DNA from: a virus
Lineage: Duplodnaviria; Caudoviricetes
Direction: 5' to 3' (one strand)
Length of the DNA: 63,419 nt
IMG/VR virus record: IMGVR_UViG_3300026512_000011
Coordinates: 1 to 63,419 of that record
Each line of letters starts with the position of its first letter. Positions within the stretch are counted from its first letter, which is position 1. The position numbers and the translations under genes are program-made. Shown piece after piece: positions 26,715-53,375 of this stretch. The notes under the pieces are model-generated. The model was not told the DNA's origin. It saw only the letters and a program-made list of their open reading frames with translations, and did no database searches.

Positions 26715-27192
26715 TAAAAACCTCCATACACCTCATAATATTGGCTATCTGGTCGGCTCTTGAATTAAATGGACAACCATTATGTCCTTTAATCCAGCAT
26801 ATTGTAAGTCTAATATATTTCCTTAAATAATCAATCTCTGATAATATCATTTCTATTAAAGTTTTATTACTTCTATATCTCCACTTTCTATTTAAAACTT
26901 TAACTGAATACAGACTATCCGAATATATCACAGCTTTCTTTATTGAAGATAAATTATCCTTAATAAAAAGTAAAGAATAGTAAATTGCCAATAATTCTCC
27001 TTGATTGTTTGTAATATTCTTTAATTGTTTCCCGAATTCAAGTATAATATTACCTCTCTTATTTACTACTATAAATCCTATTCCACATTTGTTTTTGCCA
27101 TAATATTGAGAGCTATCTGTATAAATGTATATTTTAGAATATGGAAATTTTATATTTTCATTTAGCTTGACTGTGAGGTCTGCTTCTTCCAT
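26698..27192 (-). CDS. rnhA: ribonuclease HI
   Basis: IYTD, TNNQGEL, YSDSLY, WIKGH, N.RAD motifs. Confidence 0.9.
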   Translation of the reverse strand: MEEADLTVKLNENIKFPYSKIYIYTDSSQYYGKNKCGIGFIVVNKRGNIILEFGKQLKNITNNQGELLAIYYSLLFIKDNLSSIKKAVIYSDSLYSVKVLNRKWRYRSNKTLIEMILSEIDYLRKYIRLTICWIKGHNGCPFNSRADQIANIMRCMEVFNELER

Positions 27193-32436: not shown

Positions 32437-32850
32437 TTAAACATTAACTTTCTTAATGAGATTTAAATAATCTTCTAAAACTTCAAAAATTATATCCCTC
32501 ATTTTTATCTTGTCTTCTATTGGAATATCAAGCATAAACAATAAAAATCTAATAGTTGCAGGACTTATCTTTAAAAGCTTGCCTTTTCCCATACAATTAA
32601 ACACAATCATTCCTTCATTTCCTTCAGCCATAATATAAAAACCATCATAAGGCTTCCATTCTCCATTACTATAAACTAAAATTCCTTTTTCTTCACTAAA
32701 AGAAATTTTACAAGAACGAAATAATAATTTTCTACCTTTTATTTCATATTCTCCTTTCCCGACAAGTTTCCAATTATCTTTATTTACCTTTTCAAATATT
32801 TTCCATCTCATTCCTCTTTCTGATATTGCCATTATCAACCTAAAATTCAT
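32437..32850 (-). CDS. hypothetical protein
   Basis: 137 aa, GAGGAGG RBS, first gene of the left arm. Confidence 0.65.
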   Translation of the reverse strand: MNFRLIMAISERGMRWKIFEKVNKDNWKLVGKGEYEIKGRKLLFRSCKISFSEEKGILVYSNGEWKPYDGFYIMAEGNEGMIVFNCMGKGKLLKISPATIRFLLFMLDIPIEDKIKMRDIIFEVLEDYLNLIKKVNV

Positions 32851-32890
32851 TATTTATCCTCCTCAATTTAGATTTATTCTGTTAAGTCTA

Positions 32891-32919
32891 TATATAATTC
32901 CTAATTCTTATTTTGTCAA
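32891..32919 (-). promoter_or_regulatory. leftward promoter
   Basis: TTGACA-N17-TATATA upstream of the first leftward gene. Confidence 0.5.
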
Positions 32920-33219
32920 CTCTTATTCTAATCTATTTATTAATTCTAACTATAATCCCTATATAAGTTAAATTACATTTAATGTATTTTTTTCTATTAA
33001 TTTTCTATTTATTCTTTCTTTTTTCTTCTCCTTATTCTTTTAGAAATCCAATTATCTATTGGAATATATAAGTTATCTTAACTTCAAATTTATTTTTCCT
33101 AAATTATCATTAGGATTAAGTTTACTATAATTGAAATGAAATCTGGTATATATAATCTTATATCTTGTATAGTGTTTATTCTGATTAATGTTATTATTTT
33201 ACTCTAATTTTTATTTCTG

Positions 33220-33340
33220 TATATAAGTTATTTTTCTATGTGACTTCCTCCCCTCACTAAAGTGAGGGGCTTCCTGCTTCATCGTGGGAATAACTCCCAC
33301 TCCACAGGCTTAACTTCCCCGCAGTCCACGGGTAGGGCAG
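33220..33340 (-). ncRNA. predicted TnpB omegaRNA/reRNA: about 100 nt scaffold plus guide ATAGAAAAATAACTTATATA
   Basis: GC-rich stems overlapping the tnpB 3' end and ending at TCAC (33240); guide is the right flank; 5' boundary approximate. Confidence 0.65.
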
Positions 33341-34517
33341 ACTTTAACGGGTCTGCCAGCCGCTCTAACGCTATTCTAAGTATGTTTCTTGCTGAATTGA
33401 CATCTCTGTCTATTTCTCTTCCACACTTTTGACACCTAAAGACTCTCTCTGATAGAGAGATTTTCTGCTTATGCCCGCAGAAAGAACAGGTTTGAGTGGT
33501 AGGCTCAAACCTATCTATAAAGACCACAGGAATAAGGGTCGCAAGGTTTTTCAGCCTTACAGTTATTCCCCCTATTCCTGTGTTCTGTATCTGTTTGCCA
33601 AAGTATCCCTCTTTCCAGCTCTTGATTGAATCGTCCTGTATTGCTATAAAGGAGAACCCCTTGAGGTAGCTTACAACCTTATTGAGCGTGTCTTTCCTCT
33701 TGTTGTTGATGTATTCCCACTCTCTCCTGATTAGCTGTTTTGTTTTCCAGTAGTTCTTACTCCCTTTCTTCTTTCGGGATAAGGATTTTTGAAGTCTTAT
33801 GAGTCTTTTAGTTTCAGGTATATACCAGCTAAATTTCTCTCCATTTGATAGAGTTAGCTGGTGTTTTATTCCTAAGTCTATACCTATCGGCTCTTTTAAT
33901 TGCCTTTCTCTAATTTCTCTTATGACCTTTTCTTTCGGCAGGTAGCAAACTATGTGCAGGTAATATCCAGAGGGTTTCTTTATGAGGTGTGCTTCTGCAA
34001 GTTCTGCACATTCAGGTATCTGGTGAAGTCCTAAAACTCTAAACTTTTTCTTTATTCCTTGTATTTTTACTCTATTCCTATCTCCAGAAAATTTATAGGT
34101 TATCCCATACTGTTTTAACGGAATACTCCTTACTTCACTCTTAAACGAGAGTTTCCCCACTCTGATTCCTTTTTCCTTTGCTCTTTTGAGGGAGAAAAGA
34201 CTCCTCTTTACCCTTTCTACTATTCCCTGTTTCATTTGTGAGGATAACTGTTTTATTTCCCGCTTCTCAAAACCTAACGGCGTTTTTACTTCTACTGCTT
34301 TGAGTTTCCAAGTGCTTCCGTTTAATCTGTTTTCAATGTCCGCAATTACGTAGTTGTATAGCCATTTAGCTTCAAGGAATAACCTGTTTAACGTTTCTCT
34401 GTCTTTTGCAGACAGGTTTTGAAGTTTGACCTGATAGACACGGGGTATCTGTTCTTTCCTCTTTTCCCGTGTTTGCTTTAAAGTATTCCTTATCTTTTCG
34501 GCTTTTACCTGTTCCAT
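33279..34517 (-). CDS. tnpB: TnpB RNA-guided nuclease family protein with atypical RuvC-II
   Basis: GIDLG (D214), IAIQDD (Q294), CSFC/CQKC zinc finger, DRDVNSARNI (D372). Confidence 0.92.
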   Translation of the reverse strand: MEQVKAEKIRNTLKQTREKRKEQIPRVYQVKLQNLSAKDRETLNRLFLEAKWLYNYVIADIENRLNGSTWKLKAVEVKTPLGFEKREIKQLSSQMKQGIVERVKRSLFSLKRAKEKGIRVGKLSFKSEVRSIPLKQYGITYKFSGDRNRVKIQGIKKKFRVLGLHQIPECAELAEAHLIKKPSGYYLHIVCYLPKEKVIREIRERQLKEPIGIDLGIKHQLTLSNGEKFSWYIPETKRLIRLQKSLSRKKKGSKNYWKTKQLIRREWEYINNKRKDTLNKVVSYLKGFSFIAIQDDSIKSWKEGYFGKQIQNTGIGGITVRLKNLATLIPVVFIDRFEPTTQTCSFCGHKQKISLSERVFRCQKCGREIDRDVNSARNILRIALERLADPLKSALPVDCGEVKPVEWELFPR

Positions 34518-34524
34518 AGTTTAT

Positions 34525-34553
34525 AATCTATTCTACCAGTTTTTTCTTTTCAA
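34525..34553 (-). promoter_or_regulatory. tnpB promoter, probably giving a leaderless mRNA
   Basis: TTGAAA-N17-TAGATT then 7 nt to the ATG; no SD. Confidence 0.45.
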
Positions 34554-34767
34554 CGGCTTACGCCGTGTGCTGTATCTCTCCTTTAAAAAGGAGAGCGTTA
34601 GCACACAAATTTTTCGTAAATTTACTATTCTATTCTCTCTTTTTTCTTTTTCTCCTATTCTTTTAGAAACCAAGTTAAACATTACATCCCAACACCTATC
34701 TTAACTTTAAATTTTAATTTACAGGAAAGAGAATTAGAACAAACATTACAATAAACATTAATCATTA

Positions 34768-34776
34768 TTATCCACA
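34768..34776 (+). promoter_or_regulatory. consensus DnaA box
   Basis: TTATCCACA near the C-rich to G-rich strand switch. Confidence 0.45.
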
Positions 34777-35229
34777 AATTACTCACTAAACATTATTTCC
34801 TCTTCTTCTATCTTTTTTCATCTTTTTACTCTTTCTCAATCCTTATCAAATTAGCCTTGTCGTTTATCTATTTAACCTGTATTCAATTTTTTGGTATTAG
34901 TAAGTATTGGATACTTGGGAAGGATGATTTGAACAATACAGACGAAATATATTGATGTTAGGTTAGTGTAAATTACAAAATGTAAGAGATAAATAGCTTA
35001 TGTCTTGTAATGGGTTATTTAGTTTCTAAAAGAATAGGGGATTTACATAGAAGATAAAAAGATATAATAGAGATAACAATAATAGTAATTATCAGAGTTA
35101 TATTAGAATTAATATTTACAGAATATCAGGTAGAGTAATAAATTATAGAAATCAGAATAGATATTTTATACGATTTTAGTTATTATTTACCAGATTTTAT
35201 TAACTTTATCTGAAATACCTATAACTATC

Positions 35230-35257
35230 TTGACAGATTTTATATTGAGGATAAATT
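35230..35257 (+). promoter_or_regulatory. rightward promoter
   Basis: TTGACA-N16-TAAATT. Confidence 0.6.
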
Positions 35258-35293
35258 AATAGGTAATTAAAAGTAATTGATTATTGGAGGTGA

Positions 35294-37765
35294 TTGAAGT
35301 TGAATATGACATTAACCAAATCTAAAAAGACAAAAAGAACAAAGAGAATAAAAGTAGATTTTCCTAAACCTCAAAAGATTAAACGACCTAAATATTCCAT
35401 TTATAAAATCTTGGAAGATGTAAAGAATTATATGAAGAAAACTTATAGAAATGATATTTTAGAATACTCCAATGTTTTATCTCAAATAAACGAAGATGGA
35501 TTTTTAATTTCTATTGGAAATAAAGAGTATAGACAAAGAGATATTTCATTTAAAGGAATGAAAGAAAATATATTTCAGAAGATTGTTAGGAATTTTTCTA
35601 AAATTAGAATTTTACTTTCACAAGGAAAATATAGAGTTAAAAATGGTAAAGTCATTTCTTTAGATAAAGAATTAAAACCTATTGTATGTCCTTTTATTGA
35701 ACTTCCTAATCTTTTAACAGAAAAAGCAATTTTAAATAAAAGCGATAATGAATACTATATCGGCAATATAAGAGAATTTATAACTTTAAGAGCTTTTGAT
35801 GGAGAAAGAAAAAAAGGAGAATTCCTATTAAAGAAAGGTTTTTACGCTCTTTATATGTTTGATTTTGACAAAATAAATGAAATTCCTTATGAAGAATTAA
35901 TAGAAAGAATTACTAAAGTAATTTTTTTGATGAGGGAATTAGGAGTTATGTTCTTGTTTTCAAGGATTAGTAGGAGTGGAAATGGAATCCACATTCTATT
36001 TCCTGTATATATAAATTCTGATAATGATGATGCTTATGCAGTTGATAGAGAAAATAGACAATTACTTAAAAGAATAGCTAACGAATTCGGAGCTGATGTA
36101 TCTGTATATGATGATGCAAGAGTAGTATTTAATTCTCCTTATCCCAAGATGTTTGTTTATGTTAGAAAAAGAAAAGATATAAAAAAAGCATTACCTAATT
36201 TGTATGAGTTAAATGAAAGATTAAGAAATTTTGTCAAAGAATATAGCATATCTGAATATAATGAACACAGTGTAAATAATTCTAATGATAAAAAAGACAA
36301 AAGGAAAAGAGGGCGACCTCCTAAAACAGATAAAGTCCAACCTATTACTCAAAAAGAAATTACTAATCCCGAAAATCCTGCTGAACATTATTGGAGTATT
36401 AGGCTTTGTTTGTTTGAGAATACTACAATTCAACAATTTATTAACGATTATATGAATGCAGATATTTTCGGACATAAAAATTACATATCTAATTATGCTT
36501 TTAGGCAAAAATATGGATATGGCAGACAGCAACTTGAAACAGGAGCAAAAATATTAGCAAGACATTTAAAAGAAGAGGGAATAGTTGATGATGAAAGAAG
36601 AGTTTATTACGATAGAGCATTAGATACGAATGTAAAAGAAAGATGGATTTGTATTTCACTATCTCCTAATGAAAATTCTCCTTATGATATTTTCCTATAC
36701 ATAGATAACAATCTTATATTTTTCCAATCTCCTAATTCATTAAGACATTTAGGAGAATTAGCATTTTTTGTAGAAGGAGTAAAATATGTTGGAACTGATG
36801 AGGAGGGTAAGCCTATGTTTGAGTTAATTGAAAATTGCACAAAACCTTATCTTAAACCTGAATTTGCTCCACTTTTACTTGGAATTCTTTATAAAAACTG
36901 GGGAGTTCAAGTTCCTGAAGGATTTGAATACGCAGTAGCTTATAGAATGGGAGTTAAAGATTTGTCTATTTATGTAGCAAGAGGAGTAGCACTTGGATTA
37001 ATAGATGCTATTGATAGTGCAATTAATAAAAACCTCAAAGAAATAAAACTTGCAAAATTCATTCCTCTCCATTTAAGAAGAGGAGAAAAGAACAAACAAT
37101 TCAAGTCAATTATCAACTACATTAACGATAAATATTCTGATTTTATTGAAATTAAACTTAAAGGAAAAGGAAGAAAACAAGCCTACTATCTAATCATCAA
37201 AGATTCATTCAAAGAACAGCTATCTAAAATTAACAATATGCTTCTTCTTTCTGAAGAAATTAAAAAATCATTTATTGAAAAATGTAATGTATCAGTTGAT
37301 ATAATGAAAATAGATGCTGGAATAATAGATTTATATAGATTTTTATTCGGCTTAACATTTCCATATCATTTTGATTTGGATAATCCAGAAAGGACTTTAA
37401 ACAGATTAAGGGATGAAAACAAAACTTTTAGACAAGTAACAGACTTTTATAAAGAGTTTATAGATGATTTAAAGCAATTTATCAAAGAATCTTATAAAAA
37501 AGCTAAAGATTATTTATATGAAGTAGAAGGTGAAGAAAAAACAAGAGGATTGGATACATTCTTGATAGGAGTAATCCGAAGATGGAAAACCAAAGATGCT
37601 TATTATAGGTGTTTAGGGTTTTATCCAGAAGCATTGATAGTCAATAAAAGATTAAGAGAGAAATATGATTACGATGTAGTTAAAACATTTGAAGGATTAA
37701 CAAGGATAGATTTTAATCCTATTAAAGAAGTTCTTAAAGAAGATGAATATAATTACGATTTTTAG
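35294..37765 (+). CDS. AEP-superfamily primase/Rep-like protein with AT-hook
   Basis: MFDFD (DxD), SRSGNGIH (SxxGxH), DVSVYDDAR; KRKRGRPPK AT-hook; next to the origin-like region. Confidence 0.65.
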   Translation: MKLNMTLTKSKKTKRTKRIKVDFPKPQKIKRPKYSIYKILEDVKNYMKKTYRNDILEYSNVLSQINEDGFLISIGNKEYRQRDISFKGMKENIFQKIVRNFSKIRILLSQGKYRVKNGKVISLDKELKPIVCPFIELPNLLTEKAILNKSDNEYYIGNIREFITLRAFDGERKKGEFLLKKGFYALYMFDFDKINEIPYEELIERITKVIFLMRELGVMFLFSRISRSGNGIHILFPVYINSDNDDAYAVDRENRQLLKRIANEFGADVSVYDDARVVFNSPYPKMFVYVRKRKDIKKALPNLYELNERLRNFVKEYSISEYNEHSVNNSNDKKDKRKRGRPPKTDKVQPITQKEITNPENPAEHYWSIRLCLFENTTIQQFINDYMNADIFGHKNYISNYAFRQKYGYGRQQLETGAKILARHLKEEGIVDDERRVYYDRALDTNVKERWICISLSPNENSPYDIFLYIDNNLIFFQSPNSLRHLGELAFFVEGVKYVGTDEEGKPMFELIENCTKPYLKPEFAPLLLGILYKNWGVQVPEGFEYAVAYRMGVKDLSIYVARGVALGLIDAIDSAINKNLKEIKLAKFIPLHLRRGEKNKQFKSIINYINDKYSDFIEIKLKGKGRKQAYYLIIKDSFKEQLSKINNMLLLSEEIKKSFIEKCNVSVDIMKIDAGIIDLYRFLFGLTFPYHFDLDNPERTLNRLRDENKTFRQVTDFYKEFIDDLKQFIKESYKKAKDYLYEVEGEEKTRGLDTFLIGVIRRWKTKDAYYRCLGFYPEALIVNKRLREKYDYDVVKTFEGLTRIDFNPIKEVLKEDEYNYDF

Positions 37766-51836: not shown

Positions 51837-53375
51837 ATGAAAGCTATTCAAAAGGGAATGTTTTTATATTTTGATGATTTGAAAGATTATGAGGTAAAAT
51901 ATTTAAAGAGAATATTAACCAAAGAAAATTATCAAAAGGTAAAAGGTAAATTACAATTACAAAGAAGAGTAGAAATGTTATTTTATGATTCTACCTTAAA
52001 TCAATATTATACACTATTTGGATACTCTCAATACTTAAAAAAGAAAATTCCAAATCTTCAAATAGAAGCAGAAATACCCGATGCTTTAAAATTAGGAGTA
52101 GATTTAAAAACATTAGGTAAGTATGAGTTAAGAGATTATCAACAAGTAGCAGTAAGAAATTGTCTTTTAAAAAAATTTGGAACTGCTGTTCTTTTTATGG
52201 GTGCAGGCAAAACATTAATAATGGCTAAAATAACTCAAATTTTAGATAAACCTACTTTAATTATAGTCCCTACATCTCAATTATCTGAACAAATATACAA
52301 TTTCTTTGTCCAATCAGGAGCTTTTAATATTGAAGATGTAGGTAGGTTGGATGGTAAAGTAAAAAAACCATCTAAATTTACAATAGCTACTATGCAAACT
52401 ATATCTTCAATGATTGATAATAATCCTGTATTATTAAATAATTATAAAATTATAATGAACGATGAGAACCAGACGACACAACAATCAAATACAGGATTAA
52501 AAATCTTTAACTTTTTTAATAAACAAGTTGATTATTTTATAGGTTTTACAGGAACTCCTTATCGTTATCTTAATCCCGATAAATCAATAGAAGATTTTAT
52601 AATGTTAGGATTTGTAGGCTCTCCTATTGTAGAAGTAGGATTAAAGTTTTTAATAGAAAAAGGATATTTAACAAGACCGATAGTGTATATGGAAAATATA
52701 ACTACTCCTCCTATTACAACTGATTATTGGCAAGCTGTGTATAAAAAAGGAATAGAGAAAAATAAAAGAAGAAATGAATCAATATCTAATTGGATTACTT
52801 ATTTTACAAATAAAAACATATTATCTCTTACAATGGTAAATACTAAAAAACACGCTCAATTGTTGTTTGATTATTTACCTGATGAAATAAAAGACAAAAC
52901 AATAATTCTATTTGGTAACAGGACTGCAATGTTATATATCAATGGAGAATTGAAATATAGAACAATTGAATATTCTAACATTGTCCAAAAAATAAAAGAA
53001 AAAAGAGAATGGAATAACATAATAGCTACTCAAGTATTGGCACAAGGATTTGATTTACCTGAATTACAAGGATTGATATTAGCTTGGGCTGGCAAATCTT
53101 TTGTTCAAGTAATGCAGAGGTTAGGAAGAGTATTAAGATTACATAATAATAAGAAATTAGCATTTGTAGTTGATTATTTTGACAAAACTCACGCATATTT
53201 AAAGAATCATTCATTTAAGAGAATGCAGATGTATAAAAATGAAGGTATAGAAGTCATAACAGATAAAAATTATTTTAAATTCAAAGTAGAAAACAATTTA
53301 CCTCTAACAGAGAGTAATACAGACATTGACAACGACGATAATTTTGATTATATTTTAAATCAAATTGAGTTTTAG
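51837..53375 (+). CDS. SF2 helicase (UvsW-like)
   Basis: LRDYQ, GAGKT, DENQ, FTGTP, GFDLP.L, QRLGRVLR. Confidence 0.88.
   Translation: MKAIQKGMFLYFDDLKDYEVKYLKRILTKENYQKVKGKLQLQRRVEMLFYDSTLNQYYTLFGYSQYLKKKIPNLQIEAEIPDALKLGVDLKTLGKYELRDYQQVAVRNCLLKKFGTAVLFMGAGKTLIMAKITQILDKPTLIIVPTSQLSEQIYNFFVQSGAFNIEDVGRLDGKVKKPSKFTIATMQTISSMIDNNPVLLNNYKIIMNDENQTTQQSNTGLKIFNFFNKQVDYFIGFTGTPYRYLNPDKSIEDFIMLGFVGSPIVEVGLKFLIEKGYLTRPIVYMENITTPPITTDYWQAVYKKGIEKNKRRNESISNWITYFTNKNILSLTMVNTKKHAQLLFDYLPDEIKDKTIILFGNRTAMLYINGELKYRTIEYSNIVQKIKEKREWNNIIATQVLAQGFDLPELQGLILAWAGKSFVQVMQRLGRVLRLHNNKKLAFVVDYFDKTHAYLKNHSFKRMQMYKNEGIEVITDKNYFKFKVENNLPLTESNTDIDNDDNFDYILNQIEF
53326..53354 (+). promoter_or_regulatory. putative promoter
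   Basis: TTGACA-N17-TATATT. Confidence 0.5.

Follow-up and report, generated by a model that had tools for sequence, protein, structure and literature searches.

Does a TnpB that lacks the canonical RuvC-II glutamate still serve a selfish transposon as its nuclease, or has the phage that carries it turned it into an RNA-guided regulator? The question is raised by a tnpB element in a 63,419-bp IMG/VR virus record (IMGVR_UViG_3300026512_000011; Duplodnaviria, Caudoviricetes), a linear sequence rated 56% complete by CheckV and referred to here in its full length as the window. A first-pass annotation had reported that the encoded protein retains the aspartates of RuvC-I as well as RuvC-III (D214 and D372) and carries glutamine (Q294, in the motif IAIQDD) where the RuvC-II glutamate is expected, and re-inspection of the sequence confirmed these assignments. 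From them it had proposed either a dead or attenuated TnpB bound to the phage's own control region or a variant that stays active by means of a relocated acid. We favour, at a probability of about 0.72, a normal selfish tnpB-only element in a vent phage, encoding an active nuclease of a Q-x-[D/E] type in which the RuvC-II acid is shifted. No regulatory role of TnpB on the phage is indicated.

The canonical RuvC D-E-D triad thus reads D214, Q294 and D372 in this protein (motifs IGIDLG, IAIQDD and IDRDVN, with CxxC pairs at 344 and 362), and the deviation is clade-wide, with D or E at position +2. When PDB chains were compared by phmmer, the residue aligned with Q294 was the RuvC-II Glu in each of ISDra2 TnpB (E-H-L), the designed nuclease 9yyg (E-D-L) and LaTranC (E-T-L). 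Additionally, a metagenome-assembled genome (MAG) of a related host encodes a paralogue of 30% identity (locus L018) with VIVEDLNVKG in this position. The two motifs align without ambiguity, Q-D-[D/E]-x-I-K-x-W standing opposite E-D-L-N-V-K-G-[M/L], and position 296 is Leu in the canonical relatives.

Q294 was present in 119 of the 120 best homologues (56-91% identity), the remaining one being a fragment with a gap. The named genera among them are Desulfurobacterium, Thermovibrio, Phorcysia, Persephonella, Hydrogenivirga and Thermosulfurimonas, and a Thermoplasmata MAG is also included. A search of representatives returned 438 clusters of 50% identity at E ≤1e-30, and among the best 150 of the 438 (34-57% identity) 148 possess Q294, with one His and one gap. 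All row counts given below and in Table 1 refer to an alignment of 251 rows, comprising the query and 250 homologues of 350-500 aa with identity down to 34%; 20 of 270 sequences fell outside this length range and were dropped. Each of the four zinc-finger cysteines is conserved in at least 98% of the rows. Furthermore, the TnpB of Thermus phage phiLo, 49% identical, carries the motif VVLQDD. Ten clusters were looked up, and those with names were from Persephonella and a Candidatus Odinarchaeota MAG. Two clade members, P0137 (686 aa; the named Candidatus Odinarchaeota protein) and P0138 (654 aa), possess approximately 220-245 extra N-terminal residues and may be fusions. ISTth7, considered as a tnpB-only Thermus element, was rejected, as it is published as a member of the IS5 family.

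Judged by sequence, Q294 is a feature of a clade, neither a private mutation nor a product of decay. The first-pass annotation had asked whether QD[DE] marks a conserved clade, and a Q-x-[D/E] clade was indeed found, position 295 itself being variable (D, N, K or E). The condition it had set for refutation, that Q294 is a private mutation, was answered in the opposite sense. Because Q294 is clade-wide, the argument for exaptation of the phage copy is removed rather than supported.

Where might the third acid of such a site reside? An AlphaFold2 model of the protein, built from 139 aligned sequences, reached a mean predicted local distance difference test score (pLDDT) of 94.5 and a predicted template modelling score (pTM) of 0.87. 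In this model a strand spanning residues 288 to 294 ends at Q294 and is followed by a loop (295-297) and a helix from 298, and position 296 is therefore located at the end of the strand that carries the canonical Glu. The near-invariant acid at this position (Table 1) makes D296 the candidate relocated catalytic residue. As for the acids through which the first-pass annotation had envisaged an active enzyme, the proposal stood for D296, while D295 is variable and the conservation of E338 is confined to a near subclade.

The assignment of the protein to TnpB follows from its domains and its fold. Pfam returned OrfB_IS605 and the zinc-ribbon domain Cas12f1-like_TNB (4.4e-16 and 3.2e-12), NCBIfam guided_TnpB scored 149 bits (cut-off 100), and the PHROG match was to transposase families. 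The best Foldseek matches of the model in the PDB were ISFba1 TnpB (8iaz, E 4.8e-20) and ISDra2 TnpB (8h1j, E 6e-18). The ratio of nonsynonymous to synonymous substitution (dN/dS) of tnpB was 0.12, 0.10 and 0.11 against the related loci L007, L002 and L003, respectively, and 0.11 between two copies within one MAG; L005 and L008 gave no ratio, with dS saturated and the L008 frame only 87 aa long. By these ratios the gene is under purifying selection, like ordinary TnpBs.

The ends of the element were defined by comparing the phage copy with seven related genome-contig loci. Similarity among the eight elements ends exactly after GGAGGA[A/G/T]GTCAC (window 33240) on the right and begins directly after TTTAC on the left. 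The transposon-adjacent motif (TAM) TTTAC and the guide beginning ATAGAA had therefore been correctly deduced in the first-pass annotation, since similarity stops and starts at precisely these ends. The left-end motif is TTTAC in five of the eight elements, TTTAA in one and TTCAC in one, and one decayed copy is unclear. Conversely, the sequence following the right end, corresponding to the guide, differs in all eight. The TAM of the phage copy lies within a perfect 10-nt palindrome, GTAAATTTAC (window 34616-34625), and TTTAC can therefore be read on both strands at this junction.

The reading frame and the omegaRNA, both described earlier as intact, proved so: the frame is full length, and a consensus fold of the eight elements, covering the 200 nt that lead up to the right end, comprises 27 predicted pairs, compensatory changes being present in 9. 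Folded as a single sequence, the omegaRNA region gave a z-score of -3.5. The predicted arrangement is that of a TnpB element, in which a locus-specific guide follows an omegaRNA scaffold located at the tnpB 3' end and right end; hairpin ends, a left-end TAM and copies in varied contexts are likewise present. The promoter previously assigned to tnpB matches the consensus (TTGAAA-17-TAGATT), but such sites are not above shuffles in number (8 in the stretch compared with a shuffle mean of 7.5), and we regard the site as promoter-like only. Rfam, at gathering thresholds, detected no family anywhere in the window.

Table 1. Coordinates of the tnpB element, its active-site codons and neighbouring features in the window.
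Feature	Position	Strand	Remarks
Guide of the phage copy, flank directly 3' of the right end, starting ATAGAA	33220-33239	-	Flank after GTCAC
Whole tnpB-only IS200/IS605-type element, non-autonomous	33240-34615	-	1376 bp; ~37% GC vs 25% GC in the virus
Predicted omegaRNA scaffold region (tnpB 3' end and right end)	33240-33440	-	Includes terminal hairpin 33250-33270
tnpB open reading frame, intact, 412 aa	33279-34517	-	Pfam, NCBIfam, model
D372 codon, RuvC-III Asp, DRDxN motif	33402-33404	-	D in 246/251 rows
E338 codon, past strand beta5, six residues ahead of the zinc finger's first Cys	33504-33506	-	E in 111/251 rows
D296 codon, candidate relocated catalytic acid (+2)	33630-33632	-	D/E in 250/251 rows (D 137, E 113, K 1)
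Q294 codon (CAG), where RuvC-II canonically has Glu	33636-33638	-	CTG on the plus strand; Q in 250/251 rows, H in 1
D214 codon, RuvC-I Asp	33876-33878	-	D in 249/251 rows
Promoter-like site before tnpB, TTGAAA-17-TAGATT	34525-34553	-	Consensus match only; such sites not above shuffles
Left-end subterminal hairpin	34565-34606	-	Inverted repeat, 20-nt arms, 80% complementary; kept in the left-end alignment
TAM / left-end target motif TTTAC	34616-34620	-	Abuts the left end 5'
TTTAC plus 6-nt guide seed match, TTTACATAGAA	35042-35052	+	Single occurrence in the window; chance-level, not counted as a functional part
823-aa open reading frame	35294-37765	+	'Rep' of the first-pass annotation

The occurrence of the element outside this phage was assessed by laying the contigs of four vent-metagenome runs (X1 to X4) on window positions 32600-35600. 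In X1, probably the source sample, the phage and the insertion sequence (IS) were present at equal depth (~250-265), and contigs break at the IS. In X2 to X4 essentially only the bins from 33206 to 34619 were covered, at a summed word depth of 20 to ~1300, and loose ends with mixed sequence (agreement 0.56-0.64) were located at 33238/33240 and 34620. Thus, in other samples the element resides in many contexts. The host MAGs contain intact copies, contig-end fragments and copies with stops. In-frame stops were seen in the related copies L014 (MAG G003) and L016/L021 (MAG G004), with one TAG in one and three TGA plus one TAA in another; the stops and cut copies in these MAGs are ordinary IS decay and assembly breakage. 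Within the viral contig collection, peptide patterns revealed no relatives of TnpB, and the exact IS-flank patterns gave 0 matches each.

These observations fit the following course of events. A 1376-bp element of tnpB and omegaRNA without tnpA, donated most likely by a Desulfurobacteriaceae-like host, inserted 3' of TTTAC in a repeat-rich intergenic region of this hydrothermal-vent phage. Its TnpB, if expressed, would be catalytically active like the rest of the Q clade, using D214, D372 and a carboxylate from position +2 (D296), with the Gln kept as a helper. The omegaRNA produced from the right end would guide the protein to TTTAC followed by the flank sequence, and cleavage of IS-free copies of the same phage site would retain or spread the element by homing. 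Such cutting of IS-free sibling phages had been one of the options raised in the first-pass annotation; it fits the data as the standard TnpB model, with nuclease activity the presumed part.

Several points weigh against this interpretation. Exchanging the RuvC-II Glu for Gln would be expected to cripple a RuvC site of the canonical kind, the catalytic role suggested for D296 is read from conservation, and the PDB sequences nearest to this TnpB carry the canonical Glu. No member of the Q-x-[D/E] clade was found with biochemistry in the literature searched or with a solved structure. Neither the viral contigs nor the X1 contigs yielded an IS-free phage that would confirm the target. Additionally, neither the window nor the sequence flanking the related loci revealed a tnpA, leaving the mobilising transposase without a candidate there, and a Y1 TnpA was detected in just one of five host genomes, adjoining a different TnpB. 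A tblastn search with one TnpA query likewise detected no Y1 transposase near the eight elements or the phiLo locus. As to IS-free molecules in the probable source sample, no X1 contig joined 33239 to 34616/34620, although contigs drop rare variants and this is no proof of absence; the X1 joints listed had sides of only 20-21 nt and lay at other repeat positions.

How far does the Q-x-[D/E] site depart from those already described? With canonical IS200/IS605 TnpBs (ISDra2, ISFba1 and SisTnpB1) the protein shares its domains, fold, DRDxN RuvC-III motif and C4 zinc finger, and the element shares an omegaRNA overlapping the 3' end and right end, a 5-nt T-rich TAM equivalent to the left-end target, and hairpin ends. 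The tnpB-only layout is like that of many solo IS200/IS605 copies. By most defining features the element is a tnpB-only member of IS200/IS605, and the missing canonical Glu is common to its whole clade. At RuvC-II the canonical motif is E-x-L, SisTnpB1 carrying E271 according to its text (10.1101/2023.03.06.531077), whereas here it is Q-D-D and in the clade Q-x-[D/E].

Loss of this Glu has precedents. The main text of PMC10691335 describes conserved RuvC-II rearrangements that define major TnpB clades and are taken as active, and PMC10530073 reports, in the portion consulted, that a rearranged TnpB (TvTnpB) and Fanzors cleave DNA by means of an alternative Glu. This residue is placed ~45 residues downstream (PMC10530073), just before the zinc finger, in the pattern ExxxxxxCxxC (PMC10711439, in its text). 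The present clade resembles these rearranged groups (TnpB2/Ealt/RIIr; TvTnpB and ApmFanzor) in that the canonical Glu is lost clade-wide, another acid is conserved and the elements are mobile. It differs in detail: according to the accounts consulted, the TnpB2/Ealt/RIIr clades possess Gly or Pro at the canonical site and a new Glu ~45 residues downstream beside beta5, whereas the Q clade possesses Gln, an acid at +2 that is still at this end of beta4, and D-L-G rather than DPG at RuvC-I. The Q clade may be identical with one of the RIIr branches of PMC10691335. A Glu-to-Gln RuvC-II clade of TnpB was not described in the literature text searched, although the figures or supplements of PMC10691335 may well show one.

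The precedents invite the question of whether E338 rather than D296 is the compensating acid of an active enzyme. E338 lies 44 residues past Q294 and, in the model, just after the strand 331-334, close to where rearranged TnpBs and Fanzors are described as placing their Glu near the zinc finger (PMC10530073, PMC10711439), and 105 of 120 close homologues retain it. Across the clade, however, only 111 of 251 rows possess it; in others the site is occupied by F, V or Y (F in ISDra2 TnpB, Y in the canonical paralogue L018), and D296 accompanies a non-acidic residue at 338 in 42 rows. The spacing also departs from the ExxxxxxCxxC pattern, E338 standing six residues before C344 where the alternative Glu stands seven before the first Cys (PMC10711439, in its text), and the residue at the canonical site is Gln rather than the Gly or Pro given for alternative-Glu clades of the TnpB2/Ealt/RIIr-5 type in the text of PMC10530073 and PMC10691335. 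We consider a catalytic E338 improbable. Slightly better placed, yet still unlikely, is an altered chemistry of the entire Q-x-[D/E] clade (a nickase, a slow, temperature- or metal-dependent nuclease, or binding only) that would nevertheless be of use to the transposon, for instance through stalling at the empty site or marking it. Conservation of the Gln itself in 250 of 251 rows suggests a specific role, rearranged sites in other clades are reported to behave differently, with collateral cleavage lost (PMC10530073, in the portion consulted), and the literature searched yielded no Q-clade biochemistry. Conversely, two Asp and a near-invariant third acid supply what a two-metal RuvC site needs, and the purifying selection and mobility of the gene are like those of ordinary TnpBs. 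A broader proposal, which we advance tentatively and hold to be doubtful, is that Q-x-[D/E] constitutes a third, uncharacterised active-site build of TnpB, with the acid shifted by two residues and a conserved Gln at the old site, in a large clade of bacteria and archaea that includes many thermophiles (Aquificota, a Thermus phage, Odinarchaeota). Such a build may have distinct cleavage properties, including nicking, metal or temperature dependence and an absence of collateral activity.

The proposal of a regulator rested in part on a self-match: TTTAC and the first six guide nucleotides recur at 35042-35052. The sequence TTTACATAGAA is expected 0.30 times by chance and occurred at least once in 28 of 100 shuffles. 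The window contains 316 TTTAC sites, of which one (35042) is followed by a 6-nt seed and one by a 5-nt seed, and 22% of random 6-mers from the window follow some TTTAC. When the TAM variants TTYAM seen in relatives are allowed, a 7-nt seed appears at 26896 and a further 6-nt seed at 52057. Beyond the seed, the match at 35042 extends to 9 of 12 and 14 of 20 positions in AT-rich DNA. Only 18 TTTAC sites lie within 1 kb of the element, and of these it matches best, for which composition alone gives ~2% (a base-frequency estimate); some local similarity is expected, however, because degenerate ~250-bp units in both orientations make up the region. The first-pass annotation had also allowed that the match might be a by-product of insertion into a repeat. 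When the IS was removed in silico, the insertion point aligned at ~35082 in the inverted arm, while 35042-35052 fell within a small insertion of that arm; the match is therefore not a paralogue of the target site, and its origin as a mirror copy of the insertion site was rejected. As for seed length, the text of 10.1101/2023.03.06.531077 states that cleavage by SisTnpB1 requires guide positions +1 to +10.

This bears directly on whether the protein resembles repressors of the TnpB-like but nuclease-dead kind (TldRs); as such it would bind 35042-35052 and control the origin arm or the promoter that serves the 823-aa gene. Features shared with TldRs are the TnpB fold, carriage by phage in some cases and an RNA guide beside the gene. 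The canonical RuvC-II Glu is Gln, as such a reading would have it, and off-target peaks from chromatin immunoprecipitation give TldRs a seed of ~6 nt (10.1101/2023.11.30.569447, in its text), a seed derived there from those peaks and not from repression. The match, locally the best, also lies 178 bp ahead of a promoter-like site. However, TldRs are described in the same text as having lost their transposon ends, as being in fixed association with a target-related gene and as having guides that match the promoter beyond the seed; the present element has intact ends, resides in many contexts and matches over only 6 contiguous nt. The initial TldR screen demanded at least two DED substitutions, although anywhere from one to all three residues may be altered; many TldRs lack the C-terminal RuvC and zinc-finger part, and their mutations came with new gene associations (10.1101/2023.11.30.569447, in the text consulted). 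Here there is one DED change, with zinc finger and C-terminus intact, and the Gln is shared across mobile elements rather than being specific to the phage copy. Equal or longer seeds elsewhere, the chance-level frequency of the 11-mer and the displacement from the insertion point speak further against it. The element fails every TldR criterion tested, and a dead or attenuated regulator of the phage control region, as first proposed, is very improbable.

For the window itself the preferred interpretation, a selfish IS that landed by chance in phage intergenic repeats, carries little weight, with no sign of use by the phage. Its wider lesson is that, where one catalytic residue of a TnpB is 'missing', a comparison with the clade should come before any verdict that the protein is dead. 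The text of the TldR study gives the same caution, single DED substitutions having often produced spurious 'dead' calls (10.1101/2023.11.30.569447). The Q-x-[D/E] clade offers a cheap biochemical target, comprising compact, probably thermostable putative RNA-guided nucleases with an unusual active-site layout. There is a modest chance that this layout is an undescribed variant; rearranged RuvC-II clades as such are already published.

The IS sits inside the gap between two divergent gene blocks of a virus of ~25% GC, at the point (~33-35 kb) where the cumulative GC skew turns. The position of the GC-skew minimum between the divergent blocks makes the repeat-rich intergenic region a candidate for the virus's origin of replication or control region. 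On its right-hand side, the first-pass annotation had placed the self-match about 180 bp before the promoter of a Rep gene. The distance held, in that 178 bp separate 35042-35052 from a promoter-like TTGACA-16-TAAATT at 35230-35257, a consensus match ahead of the 823-aa open reading frame (ORF). The Rep label drew no support from Pfam or PHROG, neither search giving a match, and the protein has no relatives in the viral contig collection. Weak primase-polymerase-like leads were obtained from the Atlas (BT4734-like_N, RepB_primase and AEP-TOTE; scores ≤0.87, template modelling score <0.5). By eye, the protein contains a DxD and a GxGxH-like stretch, which we take to be typical of archaeo-eukaryotic primases.

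Two further observations were made. In host MAG G001 a Y1 TnpA is followed by a TnpB-like ORF of 474 aa (locus L029, 1474-3284). Inspected by eye, this ORF possesses Gly at the RuvC-II place and the RuvC-III motif NADVN, and appears to be of the already published rearrangement type, within the host family of the Q-type elements. Finally, the region of the phage that received the IS (32867-33239 and 34616-35290) comprises degenerate units of ~250 bp in direct and inverted orientation. The unit pair 32889-33130 and 33147-34754, compared with the IS removed, is 67% identical over 247 positions, and the pair 32867-33110 and 35214-34955 is 64% identical over 265.

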